Of a stretch of 64,000 nucleotides of DNA, positions 1,355-63,869 are shown piece after piece. The stretch's first letter is position 1. Each line of letters opens with the position of its first letter. Source of the DNA: Candidatus Tanganyikabacteria bacterium (GTDB taxonomy: Bacteria > Cyanobacteriota > Sericytochromatia > S15B-MN24 > VGJW01); the NCBI GenBank assembly GCA_016867265.1, contig VGJW01000015.1, forward strand, positions 1,056 through 65,055, given 5' to 3'. A program made the position numbers and the translations under genes. The notes under the pieces were generated by a model that worked only from the letters and a program-made list of their open reading frames with translations, was not told the origin of the DNA and did no database searches.

Positions 1355-2602
1355 GTGAGCGTCAAGAAGTCTTCTGGCAAGGCTCCAGCCGGTCGTCCGG
1401 CATCTTCGACCCGTCCGGCGGCCCCTGCGGCCAAGCGCCCCGGCACGGCCAAGCTCAAGCCGGTTCAGGACAGGCTGGATCTGCAGCGCGCGCAGGTGCG
1501 CCGTGACGCCGATGCCAGCTACCAGGACGCCAGGAAGAACGGCATCGGCGGGTCTGCCATCCGGTTCTGGGATGAGGCTGGCCGCAAGGCCAAGGCCGAC
1601 ACGGACAGCGGCCGCATCGCCAAGCCCTTGGGCCAGCTCAAGCAGGCCGGCGCCGGTGTCATGAAGTTCCTGGCGCAGATGTCGAACGTCGCCGAGCTCG
1701 AGGGCAGTGCCGCCAAGCTGGGCTACCTGTCCGGCTCCGGCGTCGCGACCCGCGGCGACCTGGCCAAGGCCTCGGCCGTGACGGCCCTCGATGCCGGACT
1801 CGCGGCCACCAACTTCATCGGTGTCGGCGGCATCGTCAAGGGCTCGGCGCGCCGCGCCGCTGCCCAGCAACTGATCCGGCAGGGCGAGGCGCGCTTCGGT
1901 GCCGCCGTCGCCAAGGACGCGGTCAAGGGCATGCTCAAGGCAAGGCCATCGGCCGCGGCCTCTGTCGCCGACGACCTGAAGCGCATCGTGGGCACCTTGC
2001 CCGATCAGGGCAAGCTTGGGGCGAAGGAGGCCGAAGCCTTCCTCGGCAAGCTCCAGCCGTTCGCTGCCCGCTACGGGATGGATTTCCAGTTCGGCAAGAG
2101 CATGTTGCCCGAGGTCCACGCCAGCGCAACCAAGGTGTCCATCAAGACCATGGGCGGCGGTACCGACTGGCACGAATATGTCCATGTGGTCCAGACGCTG
2201 CAGAACCGCGCCACGGCGCTGGCCTCGCAGGCCGAACGCCTCGGCAAGCCCATCGCCAAGCTGACGGGCAAGGAGGTGGATGAAGCGTTCACCTTCACGG
2301 CCAAGACCTTCGAGAACCAGGCTTACCGGCACTTCGAGGAAGGTGCCGTCAAGGCGACGGGATTCATGGCGGGGGCCTTGCGTCCCGACCACTGGAAGAA
2401 GGTCGTCGGCTCGTCGATCGACGCGCAGGCCAAGGCGCTCGTGGATGGGGTGATGCCCAATTTCCGGGTTGGCCTGGGGGGCAAGCTTTATGGCGACATG
2501 ACGGCTCTGGGCCAGAGCCAGGCCGAGATCCTGATGAACTTCGGTGCGCCAGCCACGAGCGTGGTCAACCACGTGGCCAGCAGCGGCCTCGGCAAGCGCT
2601 GA
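1355..2602 (+). CDS. hypothetical protein (415 aa), no recognisable domain
   Basis: Long ORF with GC-rich third positions and an SD-like GAGGTGG upstream of the GTG start. The overlapping minus-strand ORF 1283..2572 is judged an antisense shadow. Confidence 0.55.
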   Translation: MSVKKSSGKAPAGRPASSTRPAAPAAKRPGTAKLKPVQDRLDLQRAQVRRDADASYQDARKNGIGGSAIRFWDEAGRKAKADTDSGRIAKPLGQLKQAGAGVMKFLAQMSNVAELEGSAAKLGYLSGSGVATRGDLAKASAVTALDAGLAATNFIGVGGIVKGSARRAAAQQLIRQGEARFGAAVAKDAVKGMLKARPSAAASVADDLKRIVGTLPDQGKLGAKEAEAFLGKLQPFAARYGMDFQFGKSMLPEVHASATKVSIKTMGGGTDWHEYVHVVQTLQNRATALASQAERLGKPIAKLTGKEVDEAFTFTAKTFENQAYRHFEEGAVKATGFMAGALRPDHWKKVVGSSIDAQAKALVDGVMPNFRVGLGGKLYGDMTALGQSQAEILMNFGAPATSVVNHVASSGLGKR

Positions 2603-2603
2603 A

Positions 2604-2658
2604 GGCCCCCAGGCGAAACGACCGCCGGCTGGTCCGGCGGTCGTTTCGCCTGGGGGCC
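2604..2658. terminator. perfect 25-bp inverted repeat with 5-nt loop between convergent genes (putative bidirectional, U-tract-less terminator)
   Basis: ggcccccaggcgaaacgaccgccgg-ctggt-ccggcggtcgtttcgcctgggggcc begins 2 nt after the stop at 2602. There is no T-tract on either side. Confidence 0.5.
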
Positions 2659-2858
2659 ACAGGCCTCGCGATCACGGGCGCGCGTCGCCGACGCACGGGT
2701 CATCCCGTGCCCGCTACCCGGCGCCGGGAAGCTTGCCAACGGCAGCCGTCGCCACGGTAGCTTGCAGAAAACCCACGGCTGCACCAGCGCCCGGCTGCCG
2801 GTCCCAAGACAAGGATGCGGCCCGACCATCTGGGTCGGACCGCATCCCGGACCAGGCC

Positions 2859-3710
2859 TCAGTACCCCTTGTAGGCGCCGCCCCGCGCCATGCTGCGGAT
2901 GCCCGGCACGTTCTCGAGCGAACCGTAGCGGTTGAGGGCGTAGCGAACACCCGCGACGATGTTGTGGACTGGATTCAAGATCTGGTCCATGCCGGGCAGC
3001 TTCCATCGTTCGAAGGTCGGCCGGATCGTCTGCATGAGGCCCATCGAGGGCGTACCCTTGCGCGCGTTCGAATCCCAGTTGTTGACAGCCCTGGGATTGC
3101 CGCCCGACTCGTGCCGGATGATGGTCGCGATGGCCGACTCGCTCAGCTTCTCCACCGACACGCCGGCGCGGACCAGAATGTCCTTGGCCTGCGCAATCCA
3201 CTCCTTGACCGTCCCCGATACCTTGCCCAGCACGGACGCATCGACCGCTCCGCCGGTTGCGGCGCGCGCACTGCCGGGAATCTCCTCGAATGCCGGATCG
3301 ACCTTCAGGCCCGCGGCCGCGGACTTGCCCATCTTCTTCTCATAGGCTGCCATCGCGGCACGGGTGAGGGGACCCTTCAGGCCGTCGATGGGGCCGGGAT
3401 CGATGCCCGCGGCCTTCATCCGCTGCTGCATCGCCTTGACATCCTCGCTGTAGCCATCGACGTGGCTATGGGGCACGGCGCCGCCACGGGCCACCTTGGC
3501 CACCGGAGCCGCTTCTTCGAGCTTCATCTTCGAGGCGACGCCCGACTCGGCCGCGCGTCCCGCAACCTGGTCGCGGCCAGTCTGCAAGGTGGCAGAAGCG
3601 GTCGCACTGCCGGGCGCCGCGGGACGCCGCAGGGGCAAGGTACCCAAGCGAGGATCGGTCGCCACGCGCGTCGCCTTGAGTTGGTTCGTGCCGCCCACTG
3701 CCATTGCCAC
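2859..3710 (-). CDS. lytic transglycosylase (SLT domain) with N-terminal peptidoglycan-binding domain
   Basis: The SLT catalytic motif region (...IIRHESGGNPRAVNNWDSNA...GLMQTIRPTFERW...) plus a PG_binding_1-like segment (DGYSEDVKAMQQRMKAAGIDPGPIDGLKGPLTRAAMAAYEKK). The N-terminal start is uncertain. Confidence 0.8.
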   Translation of the reverse strand: MAMAVGGTNQLKATRVATDPRLGTLPLRRPAAPGSATASATLQTGRDQVAGRAAESGVASKMKLEEAAPVAKVARGGAVPHSHVDGYSEDVKAMQQRMKAAGIDPGPIDGLKGPLTRAAMAAYEKKMGKSAAAGLKVDPAFEEIPGSARAATGGAVDASVLGKVSGTVKEWIAQAKDILVRAGVSVEKLSESAIATIIRHESGGNPRAVNNWDSNARKGTPSMGLMQTIRPTFERWKLPGMDQILNPVHNIVAGVRYALNRYGSLENVPGIRSMARGGAYKGY

Positions 3711-3814
3711 GTCCCCCCTGCCGGCCGAGCGTCCGACCGTTCCACATCTGGTTCATCGGGCAGGGCGGCTGTTGCAAAGCTAGCTTTAATGGACGCGCAA
3801 CATTTGCAACGATT

Positions 3815-4390
3815 TCAACGCGGCAGCACACCCGGGAAGACCAGATCCACCAACGTCTCGTGCGTCCGCTGGGCCGCATCGAAGCCGGCCAGATGCTCAT
3901 AGCGGGTCAGGACCTCGAGGGCTTCCGCCCTGTCCTCGGTGTCGGTGGCCTCGAACTCGACGCAATGGACCTCGCGTCCGCCGCCGCGTGCGATGTAATG
4001 GACCACCTCGCAGTCGGGGAAGACCCAGACGCGGATGGTCTTGGTCAACGTGCCCGACCAGACAAGGCCCATATGGGCCACGAAGGCCTCGACGGTCGCC
4101 GCCTGATCCCCGGCGTGGTGGCCGAGGTCGAGGTTGATCTCGGCGCGAACTTCAGGATCATCCCCGAACGACTTGAGCGTCAGGTGATGCAATTCCTCGT
4201 CGAACCGATGCCTCAGAATGTAGCGCCGCGCCTGCCCGTCGGCCGTCAGGAAGTAACGGTCGGAGACCTCGAGGGCGATATGCCGGACGGGCCCGAGTCC
4301 TTCCATGCGCGCCGCGAGGGCCGGGTAGTCATAGGCACTGCCCACGACGAACTTGTGCTCGATCTCAACCGTCCGTGTCACAGCCACCAT
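3815..4390 (-). CDS. CYTH-domain protein (CyaB/thiamine-triphosphatase-like triphosphate tunnel metalloenzyme)
   Basis: An N-terminal EIEHKF (ExExK) CYTH signature. The ATG at 4390 has GGGGGAG 6 nt upstream and lies 9 nt downstream of the PLD stop. Confidence 0.75.
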   Translation of the reverse strand: MVAVTRTVEIEHKFVVGSAYDYPALAARMEGLGPVRHIALEVSDRYFLTADGQARRYILRHRFDEELHHLTLKSFGDDPEVRAEINLDLGHHAGDQAATVEAFVAHMGLVWSGTLTKTIRVWVFPDCEVVHYIARGGGREVHCVEFEATDTEDRAEALEVLTRYEHLAGFDAAQRTHETLVDLVFPGVLPR

Positions 4391-5529
4391 CGGAATCTCC
4401 CCCACCGCCGGATACGCTTCGCGAGTGGCCCGGGCCACGCGGCCAGGGTCTCCTTCGTGACCTCCTGGCGATCAGACATCGCCCGCAGCTCGTCGAAGAC
4501 CGAAAGTGCAGGTCCCACGGCACGCGCATCCCTGGAGACCAGCATGGCCTCGGCAAGGCGGTCGTGCGCCGGCTCCTCGAAATTGTAGCTGCCGAAGGCC
4601 GCCCAGGCGCGGTCGACCACGCAGATCTTCGAATGCTCGCCCGAAGGATGTTCGTGGATCCGCACGCCCGCCTCGAGCAACTGCGGATAGCGGACGGCCG
4701 CCGCCACCCAGGCAAGGTCCGTGGCCGAGAGGGACTGGCGATGGGAATGGTGGACCTCGACGTGGACGCCGCGGCGCGCCGCACGCAGGATGGCCGCCTC
4801 CAGCACGGGGGCCGGCTTGAAGTAGAACGAGCTAATCAGCAGTTCATGCTCCGCTGCTTCCACCATGGCCACCATGCGATCCGTGAGGGCATTTGTCCCT
4901 TGCCACAGCCACGGCCCGGCAGGTCCCTGATGCAGGTTGGGGTTGCAGAAACCGTAGGCCATGTCGATATCGCCGGGTGTCTCCCGGGCAAGCACGGCCA
5001 GGTGCAGGCTGTCACCGGGGTCCAGCACGCCACCAATCTTCTCCCAACTGGCCATGATGTCCGGAACCACCGCACCCGAGACGGCCACGGCATATTCCCG
5101 CCAATGGGAGAATGAGGTCCGCGTCAGGTTGCCGCTGGTCAAGATCAGGTTGCCTGCTTCCGAGACTTGGATCTTGACGTGCTGGCCTCCGCCGACCCGG
5201 CGCTGCAGCCATCGGGGCGGGTGGTAATGGGTCACCCTGCCACCCGCCCGACTCAGGGCATCGAGCGCACGTTCCAGCTCCGCGCGCTGATGCGGGGACA
5301 TCAGCGTGCCCCCGAGACGCTGGCCGAAACGGTCGATCAGCAGCGAAACCCGGACCCCCCGGCCCTGTGCGGCCAGCAGAAGGTCGAGCAACTCCGCCCC
5401 GTAGTCGTCGTAGTCCAGATAAAACGTCGAAAGGTAGATGAAGCGCTCGGCATCCCGGAGCATGGCACAGCGCATCGACCAGTCCGCTTGCCTGTCCCTA
5501 AGGGGCACGAAGTGCCGGGCCCAGGTCAT
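4378..5529 (-). CDS. cytoplasmic phospholipase D superfamily protein (two HKD motifs)
   Basis: Two HxK(x)4D motifs (HVKIQVSEAGNLILTSGN, HSKICVVDRAWAAFGSYN) and no signal peptide. Its ATG overlaps the upstream SDR stop (ATGA). Confidence 0.8.
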   Translation of the reverse strand: MTWARHFVPLRDRQADWSMRCAMLRDAERFIYLSTFYLDYDDYGAELLDLLLAAQGRGVRVSLLIDRFGQRLGGTLMSPHQRAELERALDALSRAGGRVTHYHPPRWLQRRVGGGQHVKIQVSEAGNLILTSGNLTRTSFSHWREYAVAVSGAVVPDIMASWEKIGGVLDPGDSLHLAVLARETPGDIDMAYGFCNPNLHQGPAGPWLWQGTNALTDRMVAMVEAAEHELLISSFYFKPAPVLEAAILRAARRGVHVEVHHSHRQSLSATDLAWVAAAVRYPQLLEAGVRIHEHPSGEHSKICVVDRAWAAFGSYNFEEPAHDRLAEAMLVSRDARAVGPALSVFDELRAMSDRQEVTKETLAAWPGPLAKRIRRWGRFRWWL

Positions 5530-6275
5530 CCGAGGCGATAGCCCCCGGCGACATCAAGGTTGACGCCCGTGACGTAGGGAGCATCCAGGAGGTACGCAAC
5601 GGCACCTTCCATGTCGGCCATGGTTCCGGCCCGACCAATCGGGATCTCGCGCTTCAGTTGTTCCGGGCCGGGCAAATCGACCGAATTGTCCAACTGGCCA
5701 GGGGAAACCATGTTGACCCGGATGCCCCGCGGCCCGCAGGCCAACGCGAGTGATCGCGTCAGGGAAAGCAGGCCGGTCTTGCTGACGTAGTAGTCCACGG
5801 CCAATCGGCTGGCGCGCGTCCCCTCGAGGCCCGCCATGCCGATGTTCACGATGGAGCCTCCGTCCGGCATCAGGCGCAGGGCATGGTAGGCCGCATAGTA
5901 GGCACCCGAGAGATTTGCGCCCAGCGTGGCATCCCAGGCCTCGGGATCCAAGGCCTGGATCGGCTGGGGATTGTAGTTGCCCACGTTGTTGATGAGCACA
6001 TCCACACGGCCCTCGACGCCAGCCACTTCGGCAAATGCCCGGGCAACGGCGTCCCTGTCCGCGATATCGAGGGCAAGCGCCCGAATATGGCCACCAAGGG
6101 CCTTCACCTCGGCCTCGAGCGAGGCCACGTCGGCACGAGAGGATCGATACAGGCAAACGAGCCTGTAGCCACGGCGGACCAGCATCAGGCCGAGATGCCG
6201 CCCGAGGCGCCGCGCCCCCCCTGTCACGACGGCGACAGGCGCCACCGCCCCTGCCTGGCCATGCTCGGCCGTCAC
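5526..6275 (-). CDS. short-chain dehydrogenase, FolM/PTR1-like pteridine reductase family
   Basis: The N-terminal VVTGGARRLG corresponds to the TGGxRRxG cofactor motif typical of FolM/PTR1 rather than classical TGxxxGxG. It also has SDR catalytic Y...K and NNVG. The GTG start at 6275 overlaps the folB-like stop (GTGA). Confidence 0.7.
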   Translation of the reverse strand: MTAEHGQAGAVAPVAVVTGGARRLGRHLGLMLVRRGYRLVCLYRSSRADVASLEAEVKALGGHIRALALDIADRDAVARAFAEVAGVEGRVDVLINNVGNYNPQPIQALDPEAWDATLGANLSGAYYAAYHALRLMPDGGSIVNIGMAGLEGTRASRLAVDYYVSKTGLLSLTRSLALACGPRGIRVNMVSPGQLDNSVDLPGPEQLKREIPIGRAGTMADMEGAVAYLLDAPYVTGVNLDVAGGYRLG

Positions 6276-6631
6276 GCGCGCTGCCGCTCGATCCGCACGA
6301 AGGAACATGCAGCCGCAGGAACGGCCGCCGGCTTCTCGATGCGGAGACGCACCGCCGAGACGGTCGGGAAGGCCTCGAAAAGCATCCGCACACCTGCCTC
6401 GGCCATCGCTTCCAACAGCTGGAAACGCCGCTCCTGCAGGAGGGCCGTCAGCCGAGAGGCAACGCCGTCATAGTCGAGCGCATCGTCGATCGCATCGGAG
6501 CCTGCCGCGGCGGCGAAGTCGTTGTCCAACTCGACATCCAGGTAGACCGTCTGCTCCGCGGCCCGCTCGTGGGGGTAGATGCCCACGATGCAGTCCACGC
6601 GCAGCTGCCTGAGACCTGTCGTACCCGTCAT
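6272..6631 (-). CDS. dihydroneopterin aldolase family protein (FolB or FolX-like epimerase)
   Basis: A 119-aa product (LRVDCIVGIYPHERAAEQTVYLDVEL...) fits the FolB/FolX fold family. Its ATG overlaps the methyltransferase stop (ATGA). Confidence 0.75.
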   Translation of the reverse strand: MTGTTGLRQLRVDCIVGIYPHERAAEQTVYLDVELDNDFAAAAGSDAIDDALDYDGVASRLTALLQERRFQLLEAMAEAGVRMLFEAFPTVSAVRLRIEKPAAVPAAACSFVRIERQRA

Positions 6632-7407
6632 GATTGCCCCTCCTTGCGCACCAGCCAGACCTGCTCCTCGGCCGACCCAAGGTCGAAGGGCGTCCGGTGG
6701 AAATCCCCCCAGCATCCCTCGATGACGAAACCCGCTTCGCGCAACAGGGCTTCGGCCTGCTCGGGCCGCTGCCACGAGAAGGTCAGCGGCCGGTACTGGC
6801 GGCGGAGCAACACCCCTTCGGAGTCGAGCGTGTCTTCCCACGTCACGGCTTCGATGCGCTGGGCGGCTTCATCCACGATGGACGTGACCCAGAAGAGCGT
6901 GTCCTGGCCGGCAGCATTGCGATAGCGCGCACGCAGCTGGACCTCGCGCATGCGATCGATGACGCTCGGCGTGATGATGAAGTCGTCAAAGAGGAAATGC
7001 CCCCCGGGACGCAGTTGGCTGTGGATCTGGCGCAGCGCCGCCAGCTTGGTGGCACGGTCAAGCAGGTGGGGCATCGTGTGGTACGGCATCGTGACGAGTG
7101 CGGCCGGCTCGGGCAACGTGAACGTGGTGAAGTCCGCATGAATCAGGACGAGGCGATCCAGGACACCGGCATCCGCCGCCCGAGACCGACAAACGTTCAG
7201 CATCGCCCCGGAACCCTCGACGCCGTGCATGGTCCGGCCGGCACGCGCCGCCTCGATGACGAGACGGCCATCTCCCACGCCCATCTCCACGACCGGACCC
7301 TCGGGCGCATGCGCATAGGCCTCGAGGTAAAAGGCCCGGTTCGCTGTCGTGGACTCCGCCGTCGCGGCCCAGACCCCGAAGACGCCGGCAAAGCGGTCGT
7401 ATTCCAT
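6628..7407 (-). CDS. class I SAM-dependent methyltransferase
   Basis: Rossmann motif I (VVEMGVGDGRLVIEAA) and a typical class I MTase layout. The start is the internal ATG (MEYDRF...) at 7407. Confidence 0.75.
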   Translation of the reverse strand: MEYDRFAGVFGVWAATAESTTANRAFYLEAYAHAPEGPVVEMGVGDGRLVIEAARAGRTMHGVEGSGAMLNVCRSRAADAGVLDRLVLIHADFTTFTLPEPAALVTMPYHTMPHLLDRATKLAALRQIHSQLRPGGHFLFDDFIITPSVIDRMREVQLRARYRNAAGQDTLFWVTSIVDEAAQRIEAVTWEDTLDSEGVLLRRQYRPLTFSWQRPEQAEALLREAGFVIEGCWGDFHRTPFDLGSAEEQVWLVRKEGQS

Positions 7408-7535
7408 CCGGTCATTATTGCAGATGCCGGGGCAAGTCCTGCCGCGGTGAACATGTGGTGACCGGGCTGCGGGATGAATCGGGTGTCTGGCGAACCTGCC
7501 CGGAGATAAGGCAGGCCTCACTAAGGAGGTTCCCC

Positions 7536-7655
7536 GTGGCCCCGATTGGCACCCTCGCGTCCTTGCACGCCCGGCTCGAGTTGGCTGGCTTGCTGACCGG
7601 TCCGAAGCACGCCCCCTGGCTCACGCCATCACCTGCGACGGCGCGCCAGGCCTGA
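7536..7655 (+). CDS. possible small ORF (39 aa) with a strong SD
   Basis: AAGGAGG sits 5 nt upstream of the GTG at 7536, in the promoter region between the divergent methyltransferase operon and convergent rocD. Speculative. Confidence 0.2.
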   Translation: MAPIGTLASLHARLELAGLLTGPKHAPWLTPSPATARQA

Positions 7656-7683
7656 GGCTGTCAGCAGGCCCGACCGCCGGTCT

Positions 7684-8898
7684 TCAGGCCGCTGCCAACA
7701 CCGCCGCGAACTGCTCGAGGCCCCAGAGCAGATCCGTATCCTCGATGACAAGTGGCGGTGCAAAGCGAATGACGGTCTCGTGGGCGTCCTTGCACAACAA
7801 GCCGCGGGCCGCCAGAGACTCGATGAAAGGTCGGGCCGGCCGATCGAGCTCAATACCGATCATCAAGCCCTTGCCGCGGACCTCGACGACCCGCGGACTC
7901 TCCAGAGCCCGGAGCCGGGCCATGGCCAAGGCCCCGAGGGCAGCCGAGCGTTCGGCCAACCTTTCGTCGACAAGGACATCGAGTGCGGCCATCGCCACGG
8001 CACACGCCAGCGGATTGCCCCCGAAGGTGCTGCCGTGATCCCCGGGACGGAAGACGGACATGACATCGCGGCGCCCCACGACGGCTGAAACAGGATAGAC
8101 ACCACCAGAGAGGGCCTTGCCCAGGATCAGGACATCGGGCTTCACGTCCTCGTGATCCACGGCCAGGAAACGGCCGGTCCGGCCCAGGCCCGTCTGGATC
8201 TCGTCCGCCATGACCAGGACGTCGTTCGCCCTGCAAAGCGCCGCGGCCTCTCGCAGATAGCCTTCCGGCGGCACGATGATGCCGGCCTCGCCCTGGATGG
8301 GCTCGACCAGAAAGGCACAGGTCCGCGGGCCGATCGCCGCCTCGAGGGCCGCGATGTCGCCATAGGGCACGATCCGGAAGCCCGGGGTGAATGGACCAAA
8401 ACCTCCGCGGTACTGGGGTTCGGTCGAAAAGCTGACGACTGTCGTCGTCCGGCCATGGAAATTGTTCGTGCAGCAGATGACCTCGGCCTCGCCATCCGGG
8501 ATGCCCTTGACCAGATATCCCCACTTGCGTGCCGCCTTGACGGCCGTCTCCACGGCCTCGGCGCCGCTGTTCATGGGCAAGGCGACATCCAGATTGGTCA
8601 ACTCCGTCAGCTTCCTGTAGAAGAGGCCCAGTTGATCGTTGCGGAACGCGCGGCTGGTGAGCGTCATCCGTGCGGCCTGGGTCACCAGGGCCTCGATGAT
8701 GCGGGGATGGGCATGACCCTGGTTCAGGGCCGAATAGGCCGACAACCCGTCGAGGTAACGCTTTCCGTCGACATCGGTGACCCAGGCACCCCTGCCCTCA
8801 CGCAGGACCACATCCAGCGGATGGTAGTTATGCGCCCCGTGCTCCTCCTCGAGGGCGATCAGGGAAGCTGCGGCCGACTGCTCATCAACGTGCAACAT
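7684..8898 (-). CDS. rocD: ornithine aminotransferase (class III PLP aminotransferase)
   Basis: Strong similarity to OAT/RocD throughout (IALEEEHGAHNYHPLDVV...LSAYSALNQGHAHP...TLTSRAF...) plus the PLP-lysine region. Confidence 0.85.
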   Translation of the reverse strand: MLHVDEQSAAASLIALEEEHGAHNYHPLDVVLREGRGAWVTDVDGKRYLDGLSAYSALNQGHAHPRIIEALVTQAARMTLTSRAFRNDQLGLFYRKLTELTNLDVALPMNSGAEAVETAVKAARKWGYLVKGIPDGEAEVICCTNNFHGRTTTVVSFSTEPQYRGGFGPFTPGFRIVPYGDIAALEAAIGPRTCAFLVEPIQGEAGIIVPPEGYLREAAALCRANDVLVMADEIQTGLGRTGRFLAVDHEDVKPDVLILGKALSGGVYPVSAVVGRRDVMSVFRPGDHGSTFGGNPLACAVAMAALDVLVDERLAERSAALGALAMARLRALESPRVVEVRGKGLMIGIELDRPARPFIESLAARGLLCKDAHETVIRFAPPLVIEDTDLLWGLEQFAAVLAAA

Positions 8899-8904
8899 AG
8901 ACCT

Positions 8905-9822
8905 TCATGATAGGCCCGCAGGGGCTTCGGGTGAACCCCCCCCGGGGGGTGCTGCGGCGAGGACATCCTCCACCCAGCCCAGCACAAGCGGCCAAAGGAG
9001 CCTGCCGACCCCCTCCGCGAAGTAGGCCACGTGGCCGATCGACGCGAGGCCCAACTCCCGGGGCACGACTGTGATGTAACGAACCGGGGCGGCCGTGAGA
9101 CCGGACATGAAAGCCCGGACCGAGGCGGGTGGCGCCCACGGGTCATCCTCGGCTGTCACGGCGACGACAGGTCTCCGGATGGCCGCAAAGCGCACGGTCA
9201 TGCCGGACTCCGGATCATCGAAGAAGTAGCGGGGCAAACCGCACCAACGTCGCCAGTCCCGGTAGACGCCTGCCGGAAGCGGCTCCCCCATGCCCAGCCA
9301 AGGGGACGGGAGATAACCCAGCAGGGCTACCAGCGGTGGCCCTAGCACGGTCCACAACAGATGCAGGCGAGGACGCTCGGACCAATGCATATAGCCCATC
9401 CAGCCCGCCCCGTACCAAAGGCCACGAGGCCCCGCCGTCCGATGGACCTGAGGCACCATGCCCCAGGCCTGCCCTCCGAAGCTGTGCCCGATCATCACGA
9501 CGCGGGGGTGCAGCGCCAGGGCGAGCTCGAGAACGGCCGCGAGATCCAGTTCGGCCCACGCGGTGAAGCTGGCCGGAAAGCCACGCAACACGGCCGGCCG
9601 TGACGCCGCGATGCCCCTGTAGTCAAAGGTCAGGACGGCCATGCCCTGCTCGGCGCACCAGCGTGCGAAGCGTCCGTAGTAGCGCTGGGGCGCGCCCGTT
9701 GCGGGTCCGACCACGAGCAAGGCCCGGGCGACCTGCAGGTCTTCGGGACCGAACAGGCGCGCCGAGAGGCGATAGCCGTCGGCGGCCACGACCTCGAGGG
9801 GTTGCTCAACCACCACGGCCAT
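8905..9822 (-). CDS. alpha/beta-fold hydrolase
   Basis: GHSFGG nucleophile elbow and alpha/beta hydrolase topology. The gene lies 6 nt upstream of rocD. Confidence 0.75.
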   Translation of the reverse strand: MAVVVEQPLEVVAADGYRLSARLFGPEDLQVARALLVVGPATGAPQRYYGRFARWCAEQGMAVLTFDYRGIAASRPAVLRGFPASFTAWAELDLAAVLELALALHPRVVMIGHSFGGQAWGMVPQVHRTAGPRGLWYGAGWMGYMHWSERPRLHLLWTVLGPPLVALLGYLPSPWLGMGEPLPAGVYRDWRRWCGLPRYFFDDPESGMTVRFAAIRRPVVAVTAEDDPWAPPASVRAFMSGLTAAPVRYITVVPRELGLASIGHVAYFAEGVGRLLWPLVLGWVEDVLAAAPPGGGSPEAPAGLS

Positions 9823-9825
9823 GAC

Positions 9826-11034
9826 TCAGGGCAACGACAACCTGAAGGTCACGCTGCGTAGCGGCAGGACTGCCACCAAGGCTTCCGTGAGGGCATCGAC
9901 CGCCACCTGTGGCCGATACTCGATGGGCTCGGACGTCGTGCACCCCGTAACGCTCGCCGTACCCGAATCCGAGCCCGCCACACCATCTAGGTTGCCCGCC
10001 GGCGCCGGCGCGCTGGGCGAGCTATCGGCTGAAGCCGCCTCGAGGGGAGAGGTCGTCGCGAGCCCGCCGGCTGAAGATGCGACATCGTCGGATACAGGCG
10101 CCAGCCGAGTCCCGTCGATCTGCCACCAAGACTTGCCGCCCGGCCCCTGCCGCAAGGTCAGCAACCACGTGCAGTCCTGGACCCGAACAGCCTTGAATAT
10201 CGGCTCACCTTCGACGACAAGCGAAGAGGTTGCGGGGGGACGGGGTGCCCCGTCCGTAGTCGCGCGGTAGCCGCTTGCGTAGGGCTGCAGGAGGGGTGCG
10301 TCGGCTTCCAGGATTTTGCCCGCCAGCGCCAGTGCCCGTTCCGGGGCAACGAGGGCCTTGGCGAGGTCGATCTCGACGAGGTTCGGCGCACCTCCCGAGG
10401 GCTGGTAACCCTCCAGCACATCCACGAAGGCGACGCTCTTGCCAAGCGTCAACCGCGCGTAGCCCTTCTGCTTGCCCAGGACGTGGACCTCGAGCAAGCC
10501 CGGTTCCGAACCGGACTTGCGCCATTGCACCCAGGCAACGCGCCCGAGGCCCAGCGCCCGCTGAACCTCGGCAACCTGCTCCAGCCTGGCCGGCCATGTG
10601 TCCCTGACCGGAAGGTCGGCACGTTGCCAGCCCTCCGCTTGGCTGAATGCGAAGGGAATCGAGGCAAAGCCCGGCTCGATTTCAATCAGGGCCCACTTTT
10701 CGAGTTCGACATCGGGAACCTTGCACGGCAGAGGACCCCGGGGCGACTCCACGCCGCCGGGGTCGGTAGTCTTGTTGAGGGCCGACGTGTTGTTGAGCGC
10801 GGAGGTGTTGTTGAGCGCGGAGGTGTTGTTGAGCGCGGAGGTGTTGTTCAGTGCCCACGTGTTGTTGAGGTCTGCCGGTCGGGCACCGACGACCAATTTC
10901 AGGCCACCACCCGTGCCGCCGATGCCGGTCGCGATCGCACCCTGCTGCAACACCGCGGGCGGCTTGGTCGAAACGTCGACGGCGACACAACCCGACATCA
11001 CGGCCAGACAAACCAGCAGACGAACGGGCTGCAT
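9826..11034 (-). CDS. lipoprotein with tandem NNTSAL hexapeptide repeats
   Basis: Signal peptide plus lipobox (LAVMSGC). The internal ATG at 11034 has GGGGGAG upstream. The product contains (ALNNTS)x5 encoded by an 18-bp DNA repeat. Confidence 0.65.
   Translation of the reverse strand: MQPVRLLVCLAVMSGCVAVDVSTKPPAVLQQGAIATGIGGTGGGLKLVVGARPADLNNTWALNNTSALNNTSALNNTSALNNTSALNKTTDPGGVESPRGPLPCKVPDVELEKWALIEIEPGFASIPFAFSQAEGWQRADLPVRDTWPARLEQVAEVQRALGLGRVAWVQWRKSGSEPGLLEVHVLGKQKGYARLTLGKSVAFVDVLEGYQPSGGAPNLVEIDLAKALVAPERALALAGKILEADAPLLQPYASGYRATTDGAPRPPATSSLVVEGEPIFKAVRVQDCTWLLTLRQGPGGKSWWQIDGTRLAPVSDDVASSAGGLATTSPLEAASADSSPSAPAPAGNLDGVAGSDSGTASVTGCTTSEPIEYRPQVAVDALTEALVAVLPLRSVTFRLSLP
10772..10875. 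repeat. 18-bp tandem repeat (~5.5 copies, gttgttgagcgcggaggt and variants) inside a lipoprotein gene
   Basis: A directly visible in-frame tandem array. End copies are degenerate and the boundaries are approximate. Confidence 0.8.
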
Positions 11035-11190
11035 CTGGATTCTCCCCCACCCTCCGGCCCCGGAGTTACCAGCAGCCTTGTACCGCAAGACGGACTGCAT
11101 CATTCAGCGCGCCGGGGTCCCCGTGTCGCGAAGCGCCACGAAGACCCCGGCCGGGACGTGCCCCATTCAGGACACGGCAGCAGACCCTGC

Positions 11191-16693: not shown

Positions 16694-17392
16694 TTAAGGT
16701 TTGACGGCCTGGCCAACCGCTACAGGCAGCTTGTCGAAGACATAGCCACCCTTGCGCGCGCCCCAGACCTGCCGGCCAGATGCATCGTAGCCCCGGTCCC
16801 AGGAGATCACGCGGCGTCCGTCGACGGAGACCTCGCTGGTCGCATATGTGGCGCCGTTGATGTCGCTGCCGCAAGCGAGGCCTTCGGTCCCGCCGACATA
16901 GCCCGCGGCTGTGCGCGCCAGAAACACCCCGCAGCCCGCCCGGTCGTTCAGCGACGCAGGGTTCAGGGACGGCAAGGGGTTGGCAGACTTCCAAGCTCCG
17001 ATGGCCGCGTCCGGATCGGGCAGGGTGAAGATCGCACTCTCGAAACGGTCTGCGGCGACGCGCGTCAACCTGTAGACGCGCTGGCGGTAGGGCGCGTCCA
17101 AGTGGGTCGCCATGGCCTGCTCGACATAGAGCCAGACCGCGTCGCTGCGCCATCGCCAGATCCGGGCGATGTGCAGGCGCACGTCGAAGAACGCCGGGTC
17201 GGCGATGGATTGCGCCGTGCTGGCATAGGAGCCGGCCATCCAGCTGCCGAGCTTGACCAACTCCGCATCACGGACGGTCTCGCTGCCCGGCACGGCGGCC
17301 GCCGCTGGGGACCCGGCAGAGGCGGCGGCCAACGGGGCAGCAACGCCACATCCAACGAGCAGAACGGTAGGCAGGAAAGGAATTATGCGCAT
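16694..17392 (-). CDS. DUF1001 (CpcT/CpeT-like) lipoprotein
   Basis: Lipobox LLVGCG. GSYASTAQS...RIWRWRSDAVWLYVEQA...PYRQRVYRL matches the CpcT/CpeT bilin-lyase-like family. Confidence 0.6.
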   Translation of the reverse strand: MRIIPFLPTVLLVGCGVAAPLAAASAGSPAAAAVPGSETVRDAELVKLGSWMAGSYASTAQSIADPAFFDVRLHIARIWRWRSDAVWLYVEQAMATHLDAPYRQRVYRLTRVAADRFESAIFTLPDPDAAIGAWKSANPLPSLNPASLNDRAGCGVFLARTAAGYVGGTEGLACGSDINGATYATSEVSVDGRRVISWDRGYDASGRQVWGARKGGYVFDKLPVAVGQAVKP

Positions 17393-17440
17393 GATGGTTA
17401 AAGTCAACCATGCGCCGTCGCTGTTAAGGAATTGACAACC

Positions 17441-18673
17441 CTAGGGCTGATCGCCCGTGGGGTCCTCGACCTTGAGTTCCGGGTCCTTGGGCTTGAATGC
17501 CGGCGGACGATTGTTGCGCGCAGCGTAAATCAGGCGGCGGAACTCACGCTCGAAGCGCTGGGCAAGCCCTTGGTCGTTCTTGATGATCAAGAACGACTCG
17601 TTGTTCGCGTTCTCGGCATTCTTCGAGTAGTTGTAGGACCCGTTGATGATGGTCTGGCCATCCACCAGGATGATCTTGTGGTGCATCAGGGCCTCGTTGC
17701 CGTCCTTGACGACAGACAACCCGGACATCTTGAACGGGGCATACAGCGAGTACTGGCCGCCTGCGAGCCACCGATCGAAGACGCCGGAGACTTCGACGCC
17801 ATGCTTCGACTTCTGGACCAAGGTCTCGCCGATCTCCTTGTCCGTCAGGGAGAAAGTCATGAAGTGAATCGACTTTCTTGCCTTGCGCAGGACGTCGACG
17901 ACGGCATCGCGACCGCCCCCCTTGGGGGAGAAGTAGAGGCTGACTTCGGCGCCGCCGACGTGGAAGAGACCATCCCCCCCGATGCTGGTCAGCGTGCCCG
18001 CGGGTCCGAAGACGCCATCGACGAACATCGTGTTGAACGTGCGGCGGTAGCGGGACGCGAGCGACTCGCTCTCGAGAACCAGGGCGTTGTTGTTGTGCCG
18101 GAAGAGGCTGCTGGTCGTCAGATTGGTCGAGCCGGTCCATATCGTCTTCTCGTCGATGATCATGAACTTGTTGTGCATGATGGCCGACCGCTGGTCGTCG
18201 CGGATTCTGACGCCCGCCTGCCGCAGCTGGCCGATGGCGAGGCGCTGCTTGGCAGGATTGTCGTGCTCCACCATGTTGTCGCTGTCGGTCGTCAGGCGGA
18301 CCTTGACTCCGCGCTTGGCAGCCCGCACCAGGGCAGCAACGGCGTCGGCATCCGCGATGTCGTAGAACGAACCGTCAATCGACGTCCGGGCCTTGGCAAT
18401 CAGGTCGAAGAAGGACTTGTCGGTGTTCGTGGCGCTGCGGCGTGCCTTGGGTTCATTCGAGGCGATGGTGGAACCGTACGTGTCGTTGAAGTAGACCTGC
18501 AGGCGGCGACCTGCCTGATCCGGTTCGGCACCGAAGGCATCCAGCCCATCGGGTACGGCCACGCTGCCCATTCCCACCACCGAGGGGGTGGAACCGCAAC
18601 CCGCGAGGCCTGCCGTGAGACCCAGCAGGACTGCGATGGCGCGGACCCCGGGGCGAATGTGACGAACGTTCAT
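17441..18673 (-). CDS. secreted phospholipase D-family protein (two HKD motifs), lipoprotein
   Basis: Signal peptide plus lipobox (LAGCGS). HNKFMIIDEKTIWTGSTN and HHKIILVDGQTIINGSYN are the HKD motifs. Confidence 0.8.
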   Translation of the reverse strand: MNVRHIRPGVRAIAVLLGLTAGLAGCGSTPSVVGMGSVAVPDGLDAFGAEPDQAGRRLQVYFNDTYGSTIASNEPKARRSATNTDKSFFDLIAKARTSIDGSFYDIADADAVAALVRAAKRGVKVRLTTDSDNMVEHDNPAKQRLAIGQLRQAGVRIRDDQRSAIMHNKFMIIDEKTIWTGSTNLTTSSLFRHNNNALVLESESLASRYRRTFNTMFVDGVFGPAGTLTSIGGDGLFHVGGAEVSLYFSPKGGGRDAVVDVLRKARKSIHFMTFSLTDKEIGETLVQKSKHGVEVSGVFDRWLAGGQYSLYAPFKMSGLSVVKDGNEALMHHKIILVDGQTIINGSYNYSKNAENANNESFLIIKNDQGLAQRFEREFRRLIYAARNNRPPAFKPKDPELKVEDPTGDQP

Positions 18674-56829: not shown

Positions 56830-57627
56830 ATGGCCGTAAGCCCGGCTCCTGAGCTTTGGTCGCGGTTCATCCGGACGGGTGACAGCAAGGATCGGGAGCA
56901 GCTCATCATCCACTACATGCCGCTTGTCCGGTATGTGGTAGGGCGCCTTGCCCTGACGTTGCCGGCGACGTTGGATCCCGAGGATCTCTGCGGCTACGGG
57001 CTCATCGGCCTGATTCAGGCGGTCGAGAAGTTCCAGCTCGACCGCGGCGTCAAGTTCGAGACCTATGCGGCGACCCGTATCCGTGGCGCCATCCTCGACG
57101 AGCTGCGCAGTCAGGATTGGGTCCCGCGTTCGGTCCGCAGCCGGGGGCGGGAGATATCCGAAGCGATGGTCCAGCTGGAGGGCAGCCTGGGTCGACCCGC
57201 CACCGACGAGGAGCTGGCGAACAGGCTCGGCATGACCGTGACCGAGCTGGGCCACGCGATGGCGCGCGAAACCAGCCCATTCCTGTCCCTCGACGAGATG
57301 ATCCAGGGCAGCGAAGACGGCCAGACCATGACTTGGCTCGACACCATGGCCGACGACCGCCCCGGACCGGCCCATGTCCTCGAGGAAGATGAATTCCGGC
57401 AGGAGCTTGCGGATGCCATCGACCGCCTCCCTGAGCGCGAGCGGCAGACGCTTGCGCTCTACTACAAGGAAGGGCTGACCCTGAAGGAGATCGGGCAGGT
57501 CCTTGGCGTCACCGAGTCCCGGGTTTGCCAGATCCACACCCAGGCCGCGATGCGCCTTCGTGGGCATATCAACCGCTACCTGGGCATCTCGACCGATGGC
57601 GCGGCCCCCCGCAGGAGCCGCAAGTGA
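56830..57627 (+). CDS. fliA: flagellar sigma factor FliA/SigD (sigma-28)
   Basis: Regions 2, 3 and 4 of the sigma-70 family with FliA-type spacing (...LIGLIQAVEKFQLDRGVKFETYAATRIRGAILDELR...LKEIGQVLGVTESRVCQIH...). GAGGTG lies 5 nt upstream. Confidence 0.85.
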   Translation: MAVSPAPELWSRFIRTGDSKDREQLIIHYMPLVRYVVGRLALTLPATLDPEDLCGYGLIGLIQAVEKFQLDRGVKFETYAATRIRGAILDELRSQDWVPRSVRSRGREISEAMVQLEGSLGRPATDEELANRLGMTVTELGHAMARETSPFLSLDEMIQGSEDGQTMTWLDTMADDRPGPAHVLEEDEFRQELADAIDRLPERERQTLALYYKEGLTLKEIGQVLGVTESRVCQIHTQAAMRLRGHINRYLGISTDGAAPRRSRK

Positions 57628-62630: not shown

Positions 62631-63869
62631 ATGTTCCGTCGTTCCCTTCTCGCGCTTGCCGCCGTGCTCGTTGCCGGCTGCGGTGGCCAGCCCGGCGCGA
62701 GCATCGCCCCGCTCGGCCGGTCCACCATGTCGACGGCGGACGTGGTGCAGGCCAAGGCCGTGCAATCGATCCTGCAGCCAGCCATGGGTCAGCCCGTCAC
62801 GTGGAACAACAGCCTGTCGGTGCATCCCGACCGCGAGGCGTTCCCCGTCCTGATCGACCTGCTGCGCGGCGCCCGCAAGACCCTGTGGATGGAAACCTTC
62901 GAGTTTGCCGACAACGACAAGGCCCGCCAACTCACCGACCTGCTGATCGCCAAGAAGAAGGAAGGTGTCGACGTCCGCGTGATCATGGACAACATCGGCG
63001 CCAAGTCGATCGGGACCGCCACGGCCAAGGTCCTGCGCAACAACGGCGTGCCGACCATCGTGTACGGCCCGTTCCCGTTCGTCCGCAAGACCGGCCACGG
63101 CCTCAACATCACGCACCGCAAGCTGTACCTCGTCGATGGCGACCAGGGCATGACCGGCGGCATGAACCTGGGTGACGAGTACTTCGATCACGCCCACGAC
63201 ATGCTCTGGAAGGTCCGGGGCCAGGCCGCTCACCAGCTCCACCAGGAGTTCAGCACGGACTGGGCCTTGGGCAAGGGTGGCCGGCTCGAGGTGCCCGCCG
63301 CGCCAACCGGCGCCTACGGCAACGAGCCCATCGGCATGTGCGTCACGAGCCCGCGCCAGACGGGTCGCGAGGAAGAGATCCGCGGCGTCCTGCTTCGGGC
63401 CCTCGACAGCGCCAAGAGCCGCATCGACATGGCCTATCCGTTCTTCTCGGACGACCGGGTCGTCGACCGCCTGATCAAGGCCGCCAAGCGCGGCGTCGAC
63501 GTCCGGGTCATCCTGACGAAGGAATCCCACTCGGCCATCGAGAAGTTGGCCATCTGGTCCGCGAAGCAGGCGATGCCCAAGGGTGTGAAGTTCCACTGGT
63601 GGAACACCGGCTATGCCCACATCAAGTACACGGCGGTGGATGGGGCCTTCCTGCTGGTCGGTTCGTCGAACGCCGACACGCTGACCTTCGAGAACAACCA
63701 GGAGCTCGACTTGATTCTGACGAACCCGCAGACGGTAGCCGACTTCCGGGGCAAGGTCTGCGACCCGGACTGGGCGTCGACGCCGGCCGTCACCGAGGCC
63801 GAGATCAACGTGCCTTGGACGCAGAAGCCCTGGATCGCCCTTCTCGAGCTCATCGATCGCTACATCTGA
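62631..63869 (+). CDS. secreted phospholipase D-family lipoprotein (two HKD motifs)
   Basis: Lipobox LVAGCGG. HRKLYLVDGDQGMTGGMN and HIKYTAVDGAFLLVGSSN are the HKD motifs. Confidence 0.8.
   Translation: MFRRSLLALAAVLVAGCGGQPGASIAPLGRSTMSTADVVQAKAVQSILQPAMGQPVTWNNSLSVHPDREAFPVLIDLLRGARKTLWMETFEFADNDKARQLTDLLIAKKKEGVDVRVIMDNIGAKSIGTATAKVLRNNGVPTIVYGPFPFVRKTGHGLNITHRKLYLVDGDQGMTGGMNLGDEYFDHAHDMLWKVRGQAAHQLHQEFSTDWALGKGGRLEVPAAPTGAYGNEPIGMCVTSPRQTGREEEIRGVLLRALDSAKSRIDMAYPFFSDDRVVDRLIKAAKRGVDVRVILTKESHSAIEKLAIWSAKQAMPKGVKFHWWNTGYAHIKYTAVDGAFLLVGSSNADTLTFENNQELDLILTNPQTVADFRGKVCDPDWASTPAVTEAEINVPWTQKPWIALLELIDRYI

Follow-up and report, generated by a model that had tools for sequence, protein, structure and literature searches.

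We analysed a 64,000-nucleotide (nt) stretch of a Candidatus Tanganyikabacteria genome (GenBank assembly GCA_016867265.1, contig VGJW01000015.1, positions 1,056 to 65,055; hereafter, the window) and identified five consecutive open reading frames (ORFs) on its minus strand, at positions 3815–7407. To judge from the predicted protein families, this cassette most likely makes a modified reduced pterin by a route not yet described. In order, the ORFs encode an S-adenosylmethionine (SAM)-dependent methyltransferase, a FolB-like protein, a short-chain dehydrogenase/reductase (SDR), a phospholipase D (PLD)-like protein and a CYTH protein. We assign the cassette to pterin chemistry because two independent enzymes, the FolB-family protein and the SDR with its TGX3RXG motif, point to pterins. 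What is new here is best described as a pterin branch of FolB and pteridine-reductase type with two further components, the CYTH protein and the HKD-motif PLD protein, for which we know of no precedent in any pterin pathway. The features of the cassette are as follows (aa, amino acids).

7407–6628, minus strand: class I SAM-dependent methyltransferase, 259 aa, ATG start; first operon gene and optional cassette member
6631–6272, minus strand: FolB-family T-fold protein of the dihydroneopterin aldolase/epimerase type, 119 aa, ATG start
6275–5526, minus strand: SDR bearing a pteridine-reductase signature, 249 aa when read from its GTG; translation could instead begin at an in-frame ATG upstream, at 6308
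5529–4378, minus strand: two-HKD phospholipase D-superfamily protein, predicted to be soluble, ClsB/PssA-like, 383 aa
4390–3815, minus strand: CYTH protein (triphosphate tunnel metalloenzyme), 191 aa, ATG start; last operon gene
7414–7422, minus strand: extended −10-like element TGCAATAAT, 6 nt ahead of the methyltransferase start codon; candidate operon promoter
4403–4396, minus strand: Shine–Dalgarno-like GGGGGAGA, read from the sequence; it lies within the 3′ end of the PLD gene, 5 nt ahead of the CYTH start codon

Operon architecture and protein families

The genes of the cassette overlap at every junction. The FolB-like ATG overlaps the methyltransferase TGA as ATGA (6631–6628), the SDR GTG start overlaps the FolB-like TGA as GTGA (6275–6272) and a further ATGA overlap joins the SDR to the PLD gene (5529–5526). 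The original prediction, made from the same sequence, had listed these three overlaps, which stand, together with a 9-nt gap and Shine–Dalgarno sequence at the fourth junction, of which the gap does not: the TTG at 4368, 9 nt past the PLD stop, is not in the reading frame of the CYTH ORF. The in-frame start is the ATG at 4390, which gives a 13-nt overlap with the 3′ end of the PLD gene, and the Shine–Dalgarno-like element is internal to that gene. The position of GGGGGAGA would fit translational coupling across this overlap. NCBI gene calls in two Sericytochromatia relatives agree with ours in gene lengths and in the 13-nt overlap; one of the two, 93–94% identical, also has the same start for the 191-aa CYTH protein. 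The overlaps and the matching gene calls in close relatives support the view that the five genes constitute one co-transcribed unit.

Upstream of the first gene, the sequence TGC(A/C)ATAAT is kept in all four Sericytochromatia loci (the window, L085, L086 and L006), and the spacer around it has otherwise diverged among them. This conservation suggests that the operon may have its own promoter, with a first gene that is leaderless or nearly so. A consensus sigma-70 promoter scan that required a −35 hexamer gave no match, a terminator scan returned terminator-like matches only at chance level, and no riboswitch or other regulatory RNA was matched in Rfam at E ≤ 1 across window positions 3000–9000.

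All five domain calls of the original prediction held up in profile, motif and fold tests. Pfam supports each of them, the catalytic motifs are intact in all five proteins (conservation judged over 57–81 orthologues) and none of the five carries a membrane-like hydrophobic segment (maximum Kyte–Doolittle 19-residue mean ≤1.36).

The T-fold protein is, by its profile scores and residues, a predicted aldolase/epimerase of the FolB type and not FolX. It matched Pfam FolB (PF02152) at E = 2e-27 (96.3 bits; cutoff, 31.8) and marginally passed the NCBIfam folB equivalog TIGR00525 (73.1 bits; cutoff, 72.15). Its best PDB sequence matches were gammaproteobacterial FolB proteins, including 3o1k and 2o90, with 50–59 bits for Vibrio, E. 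coli and Yersinia FolB versus 26 and 23 bits for the FolX entries 4aey and 1b9l. E21, Y53, E73 and K100 are each kept in at least 98% of 70 FolB-like orthologues, and all four catalytic residues align with those of E. coli and Vibrio FolB (E. coli E21, Y53, E73 and K98), E73 with the conserved Glu of E. coli FolB. Of the earlier label, FolB/FolX-like, the first half is upheld by the profile and the full catalytic set; the second is contradicted by the FolX model PRK11245, which the protein fails (49.4 bits; cutoff, 152).

The SDR matched Pfam adh_short_C2 (E = 1e-42), and its best NCBIfam match, over the full length, was the FolM-like TmpR model NF012208 (175 bits; cutoff, 325), against 134 bits for FabG and 128 bits for PRK09135 (cutoff, 288). 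Its motif TGGARRLG fits TGX3RXG, the Arg of which sets the pteridine reductases FolM, PruA and PTR1 apart from other SDRs (PMC13259868, PMC1971073), and folM-like genes cluster alongside those belonging to the pterin branch (PMC1971073). All 70 SDR orthologues have this Arg (R23), as well as Y162 and K166 of the YX3K motif. No Ser occupies the canonical catalytic site, where the sequence is an invariant IGMAGLEG; position 151, two residues past that site, is acidic (E/D) in 68 of the 70 and stands 11 rather than 13 residues ahead of the catalytic Tyr. PTR1 and FolM carry an Asp in place of the Ser, and the Glu/Asp here is reminiscent of that Asp, although the spacing differs. In pairwise comparison the SDR is 21% identical to E. 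coli FolM (38.5 bits) and 29% identical to the generic SDR HdhA (59.7 bits). We treat it as a putative pteridine reductase by motif and not as a FolM orthologue.

The CYTH protein matched Pfam CYTH at E = 2e-8 (34.5 bits; cutoff, 23.2), with no NCBIfam model and, even by profile search, no PDB sequence matching it. Its ExExK motif reads EIEHK and is invariant in a 22-sequence alignment, as are R60, R62, K73, R82, E84, K117, E145 and E147; in relatives that are only 25–34% identical all of these stay invariant, R62 nearly so. An AlphaFold2 model (mean predicted local distance difference test (pLDDT) score of 92.8) gave as top Foldseek matches, with probability 1.00, small archaeal and bacterial triphosphate tunnel metalloenzymes, as well as a class IV adenylyl cyclase and a thiamine triphosphatase, so that its structural neighbours take in both hydrolases and class IV cyclases. 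We assigned the protein on this motif, the basic and acidic tunnel residues and an eight-strand tunnel fold; it is predicted to be a genuine triphosphate tunnel enzyme whose catalytic set is complete.

We assigned the PLD protein on two HxK(x)4D(x)6G(G/S)xN motifs in one chain together with a bilobed PLD fold. Pfam PLDc_2 matched twice (E = 2.5e-28), and the best NCBIfam family was ClsB (NF008427), for which the protein fails the equivalog test (82.5 bits; cutoff, 281). Both HKD motifs, H117/K119/(E/D)124/S132/N134 and H299/K301/D306/G313/N316, are invariant in 69 orthologues. The AlphaFold2 model (pLDDT 90.6) matched the bacterial PLD 7e0m, vaccinia F13, PssA (template modelling (TM) score, 0.70) and PLD3/4, with E values of about 4e-21 to 6e-16 across the top 50 Foldseek matches. 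It was this protein that reached the Kyte–Doolittle maximum of 1.36, and no transmembrane-like segment was detected in it.

The methyltransferase has a motif I (VEMGVGDGR) and matched Methyltransf_25 (E = 4.5e-13), Methyltransf_11, Methyltransf_23 and Methyltransf_31 in Pfam. Its nearest solved relatives are 9sot (85 bits), CcbJ, MtfA and CypM, which we take to be amine N-methyltransferases, and the best NCBIfam match was a daptide N-methyltransferase model (66 bits, under its cutoff). The 9sot entry is cited in a paper on myxarylin biosynthesis.

Conservation, distribution and possible transfer of the cassette

We scanned one genome per species (185,579 species) for relatives, which returned 131, of which 80 loci were kept, and compared loci by tblastn with the five window proteins and by ORF clustering over 84 fetched loci. 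The cassette is intact in more than 70 soil and freshwater bacterial genomes, and FolB–SDR–PLD–CYTH were colinear in all of the 84 fetched loci with enough sequence. On three long contigs with unrelated flanks, the order methyltransferase–FolB–SDR–PLD–CYTH recurs with overlapping or abutting boundaries. The flanks are likewise unrelated between Vicinamibacterales, an 'Elusimicrobia'-labelled metagenome-assembled genome (MAG) and Sericytochromatia. The arrangement is not a product of chance, since gene order and close coupling are repeated in genomic settings unrelated to one another. The five-gene linkage on which the original prediction had staked its refutation is accordingly conserved across many genomes, with four genes colinear in the 84 loci and the methyltransferase optional.

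The methyltransferase is present in 57 loci, and in around 80% of loci it is coupled translationally to FolB. Eleven loci lack it despite sufficient room; no replacement gene was found in them, and their upstream content is unrelated and varies by locus. Its absence from these loci indicates that it is dispensable, as would be expected of a late decoration step.

Around the locus, only the five cassette genes are conserved, and the next commonest neighbour occurs in 20 of 84 loci. Clade-specific neighbours (Abhydrolase_10, GATase, a metallophosphoesterase and a radical SAM protein) reflect local synteny only. Within the 84 loci folK, folP and folC were never linked to the cassette, folE and phhA showed no linkage, and ORF clustering revealed no defence or sensor genes as conserved neighbours. 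One 7-kb Acidobacteriota contig (L078) carries the PLD–CYTH pair alone, at 1962–3731, with no FolB, SDR or methyltransferase gene within 1.9 kb upstream or 3.4 kb downstream. Downstream of this pair lies a convergent AmmeMemoRadiSam-like radical SAM gene, and several Vicinamibacterales loci have a similar gene some 8 kb downstream of the cassette.

Nearly all kept loci are labelled Vicinamibacterales or other Acidobacteriota, and three Sericytochromatia species genomes are among them. Complete Vicinamibacterales chromosomes with the cassette include OY282382.1, OZ244051.1 and OY760734.1. In a neighbour-joining tree of concatenated PLD, CYTH and SDR sequences (computed without bootstrap support), the Sericytochromatia clade nests inside acidobacterial diversity; the window sequences are 52–61% identical to the acidobacterial ones, which are themselves down to 53% identical to one another. 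Because the Sericytochromatia nest in this way and contribute only three species genomes to the kept loci, the data, as moderate evidence, suggest that the cassette has been horizontally transferred. Six cassette contigs (L023, L024, L026, L033, L038 and L051) bear the labels Bifidobacterium/Bifidobacteriaceae, Alphaproteobacteria, Thiodictyon or Chloroflexi. The four of these in the tree (L024, L026, L038 and L051) group with acidobacterial sequences, and the odd labels are probably MAG binning or labelling errors and not the true hosts.

The CYTH family extends well past the cassette. Homologues at around 60% identity number in the hundreds, and a profile search of 1.84 billion representative proteins returned 280 at E ≤ 1e-3, of which 92 reached E ≤ 1e-30. 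Almost all of the family are stand-alone proteins of about 185–200 aa (one member, P0243, has 359 aa). Relatives at 25–40% identity lie in contexts unrelated to the cassette, one of them following pyruvate kinase and phosphatidylserine decarboxylase genes; linkage to PLD, SDR and FolB is therefore confined to a subfamily at about 50% identity or more. Three distant relatives (about 25–30% identity; L088 7001–7573, and L089 and L090 7001–7555) lie in phage-like, single-strand arrays of hypothetical genes, with an RNase_H_2-domain gene adjoining or one gene upstream, and one such relative recurs on at least 24 metagenome contigs (57 index blocks). These RNase_H_2-adjoining relatives may represent a phage-encoded triphosphate tunnel enzyme.

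The gene combination was not found in the literature searched, and no curated family or defence model covering the cassette was found; source annotations of the homologues are generic ('cardiolipin synthase family', 'hypothetical' and 'adenylate cyclase class IV'). Two other candidate identities were rejected: a defence system, for which PADLOC gave only generic DrmC/MkoB matches to the PLD protein and one match to the methyltransferase, and a phage-borne auxiliary gene, given that no relative of the cassette was present in the viral contig collection.

A candidate pterin pathway and its alternatives

We consider it an even bet that the cassette works as a self-contained operon, mobile by horizontal transfer, and serves the synthesis of an accessory pterin outside folate metabolism, starting from 7,8-dihydroneopterin triphosphate (H2NTP). 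This compound, to our knowledge the sole triphosphate intermediate in pterin pathways, is the product of GTP cyclohydrolase I, which is present in every folate-making bacterium and would be encoded elsewhere in the genome. The CYTH protein would hydrolyse the 3′-triphosphate or, in a CyaB-like manner, expel pyrophosphate to leave a 2′,3′-cyclic phosphate. The PLD protein would perform the next phosphoryl step through a phospho-histidine, opening or removing the remaining phosphodiester or phosphoanhydride; alternatively, an alcohol might receive the phospho-pterin from it. Since phosphodiesters are the substrates of HKD enzymes, the pathway must include one at some point, which could be a cyclic phosphate or a conjugate. 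The FolB-like protein would then epimerise dihydroneopterin to dihydromonapterin, or cleave the side chain, the pteridine-reductase-type SDR would reduce the 7,8-dihydropterin to its tetrahydro form and the optional methyltransferase would decorate the product late, probably on nitrogen. We infer the H2NTP substrate, the order of the steps and the chemistry of the CYTH, PLD and methyltransferase proteins; the action of CYTH on H2NTP is pure conjecture, and the PLD step is the least certain of the model. Tentatively, PLD and CYTH could act as a unit on a universally available substrate, because they are the tightest pair (13-nt overlap), occur alone once (L078) and accompany a methyltransferase that is dispensable.

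The folate core genes had been reported missing from the window, and this was confirmed among the predicted genes scanned: folE, folK, folP, PTPS, phhA and other pterin genes were all absent from them, several ORFs being without a Pfam match. The lack of such genes in the window, the small number of Sericytochromatia carriers and the nested position of their clade support a probable accessory role rather than a core one.

Several points weigh against the proposed pathway. We know of no HKD enzyme that acts on a pterin; the usual substrates of the PLD superfamily are lipid or nucleic-acid phosphodiesters, and a phosphomonoesterase role would be atypical for its members. For CYTH enzymes, the specific substrate can also be inorganic triphosphate, thiamine triphosphate or a nucleotide, and the genomic context of the cassette says nothing about the ancestral CYTH substrate or about CYTH proteins in general. 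The SDR scores under every NCBIfam pteridine-reductase cutoff and is closer pairwise to the generic HdhA than to E. coli FolM. Finally, the cyclic-phosphate and transfer variants are suppositions only.

These points leave room for other explanations. The cassette might instead be a non-orthologous replacement of the early folate pathway, with CYTH as an H2NTP pyrophosphatase (an analogue of FolQ/NudB), PLD as a non-specific phosphatase, FolB as a housekeeping aldolase, the SDR as an alternative dihydrofolate reductase and the methyltransferase as a passenger. The FolB-like protein, which passes the folB equivalog cutoff with a full aldolase catalytic set, would suit this role, and a passenger methyltransferase would be dispensable, as it is in 11 loci. 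FolM can reduce dihydrofolate, and a 2007 survey found the dihydroneopterin triphosphate pyrophosphatase gene missing in most genomes and the last dephosphorylation unassigned (PMC1971073). Nevertheless, we regard a folate replacement as unlikely: folK, folP and folC accompany none of the 84 loci, the patchy and apparently transferred distribution is not what is expected of an essential pathway, a two-HKD enzyme would be an odd phosphomonoesterase, and a mere passenger sits poorly with a methyltransferase coupled translationally to FolB in about 80% of loci. The two intact HKD motifs invite another explanation, in which PLD moves a phosphatidyl group from phosphatidylglycerol, phosphatidylethanolamine or CDP-diacylglycerol to the neopterin or monapterin side chain or hydroxymethyl group, or a pterin phosphate to an alcohol, after CYTH has freed or activated the 3′ position; the product would be a membrane-anchored or conjugated tetrahydropterin. 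ClsB is the nearest sequence family, the structure resembles PssA and PLD transphosphatidylases, and housekeeping lipid functions could fall to the two other, distant PLD genes in the window. The trihydroxypropyl side chain of neopterin is also an analogue of glycerol, which Cls-type enzymes naturally use as leaving group or acceptor. Yet no pterin lipid is known, the PLD protein has no membrane segment (although ClsB and PssA are also peripheral), and the L078 pair lacks acceptor-making enzymes, unless these are encoded elsewhere. We place the probability of a pterin lipid slightly below that of a folate replacement, and judge it just as doubtful that PLD–CYTH keeps the 3′-phosphate of dihydroneopterin or monapterin as a phosphodiester (a phosphatidyl-pterin or pterin-phospho-alcohol) that is N-methylated in most carriers. 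If true, the product would belong to an undescribed class of pterin metabolites, and cofactor biosynthesis would here be using HKD phosphoryl transfer and a triphosphate tunnel enzyme for the first time.

A further possibility is that the chemistry is not that of pterins at all: the FolB-fold protein and the SDR would act on another heterocycle or sugar-like substrate, in a pathway for a natural product or for a signal derived from a nucleotide, with CYTH as a nucleotide cyclase or triphosphatase and PLD as the corresponding phosphodiesterase, or the cassette would be an anti-phage or signalling module. Class IV adenylyl cyclases are indeed among the structural neighbours of CYTH, more distant CYTH relatives occur in phage-like contigs, the SDR is no closer pairwise to FolM than to generic SDRs, and PADLOC matched PLD to generic DISARM DrmC models and the methyltransferase to a 'mad2' model. 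The pterin-specific features, however, are kept, namely E73 and the full tetrad of the FolB-like protein and the diagnostic pteridine-reductase Arg; moreover, no PADLOC model matches CYTH, SDR or FolB, viral contigs lack the cassette and its neighbours include no defence or sensor genes. We consider a non-pterin function the least probable of these alternatives, and improbable in its own right.

The accessory pterin pathway that we favour has its closest parallels in the tetrahydromonapterin branch of E. coli and Pseudomonas (FolE, FolX, an unidentified phosphatase and FolM) and in the PruA pathway of Agrobacterium, the products of which are H4-monapterin and, as has been proposed, 2′-O-methylmonapterin. 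As in the monapterin branch, a T-fold enzyme is paired with a TGX3RXG SDR in an accessory position next to folate synthesis, and the model includes dephosphorylation and methylation steps for which enzymes are unassigned in model organisms (PMC13259868). The original prediction had noted that no enzyme is assigned to the dephosphorylation in the monapterin branch, and this still applies: a June 2026 review lists the phosphatase, the methyltransferase and the side-chain decorations of the monapterin signalling pathway as unidentified (PMC13259868). In contrast to that branch, the T-fold protein is of the FolB and not the FolX type, the SDR shares just 21% identity with E. coli FolM, folE and phhA are unlinked, a CYTH protein and a two-HKD PLD protein are added, and the methyltransferase has an N- rather than O-type likeness. 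The amine N-methyltransferase likeness weakens the parallel with 2′-O-methylmonapterin.

Other known systems resemble single steps. In archaeal methanopterin synthesis, MptA (a FolE2-type cyclohydrolase) gives dihydroneopterin 2′,3′-cyclic phosphate, MptB (an HD-domain protein) is the cyclic phosphodiesterase and MptD is the aldolase. One variant of our model would likewise pass through a cyclic phosphate, to be opened by a phosphodiesterase of its own ahead of the T-fold aldolase step, but the cassette protein families are entirely different, methanopterin genes are unlinked and the cyclic phosphate is here a proposal only. Like FolQ/NudB (Nudix) and FolQ2 (HDIG), CYTH is a candidate for phosphate removal from H2NTP, a pyrophosphatase step reported as missing in most genomes (PMC1971073); unlike them, it has an unrelated fold, the triphosphate tunnel, and its activity on H2NTP is only proposed. 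The PLD protein shares two intact HKD motifs, the lack of a membrane segment and, at a TM score of 0.70 to PssA, the fold of the soluble HKD transphosphatidylases ClsB and PssA. It differs from them in scoring far under the ClsB equivalog cutoff, in always being encoded with CYTH and, save at L078, in being encoded with pterin enzymes.

On this model, the cassette would supply concrete, clonable candidates for the unassigned dephosphorylation and pterin methylation steps. In many uncultured Acidobacteriota of soil and fresh water, and in a few Sericytochromatia, it ties CYTH, HKD-PLD and methyltransferase genes to those of pterin-type enzymes. For a major soil lineage this is a hint of a pterin derivative not yet described, and for the CYTH family, which is large and poorly annotated, it offers a small-molecule substrate open to testing.

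Genomic surroundings of the cassette

The window derives from Sericytochromatia, a non-photosynthetic sister lineage of Cyanobacteria, and the closest loci (94, 82 and 79% protein identity) come from Candidatus Sericytochromatia MAGs. Synteny common to the window and these MAGs comprises a class III aminotransferase, the cassette, an SLT transglycosylase and fumarase. This segment carries three PLD-superfamily paralogues, as two further PLDc_2 two-HKD genes are present; the cassette PLD is only 23–29% identical to either of them. The window also encodes a MacAB-like exporter and a DNA ligase. Its other features are listed here.

16694–17407, minus strand: CpeT/CpcT-family gene (phycobilin lyase family, DUF1001; E = 3.5e-46)
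17441–18673, minus strand: PLDc_2 two-HKD gene
About 30066–55387, plus strand: flagellar and chemotaxis cluster (FliE, FliF, FliG, FliI-like ATPase, FlgE, FliK, MotA/B, FliL, FliM, FliN, CheY-like, FliP, FliR, FlhB, FlhA and CheA)
56830–57627: sigma-70-family factor, after the flagellar cluster
62631–63869, plus strand: PLDc_2 two-HKD gene
10772–10869: 18-nt tandem repeat (5.4 copies, 88% identity) inside the minus-strand ORF at 9826–11103

The ORF that contains the tandem repeat encodes a 425-aa protein without a Pfam match, in which the 18-nt unit is translated as an (ALNNTS)n peptide repeat.

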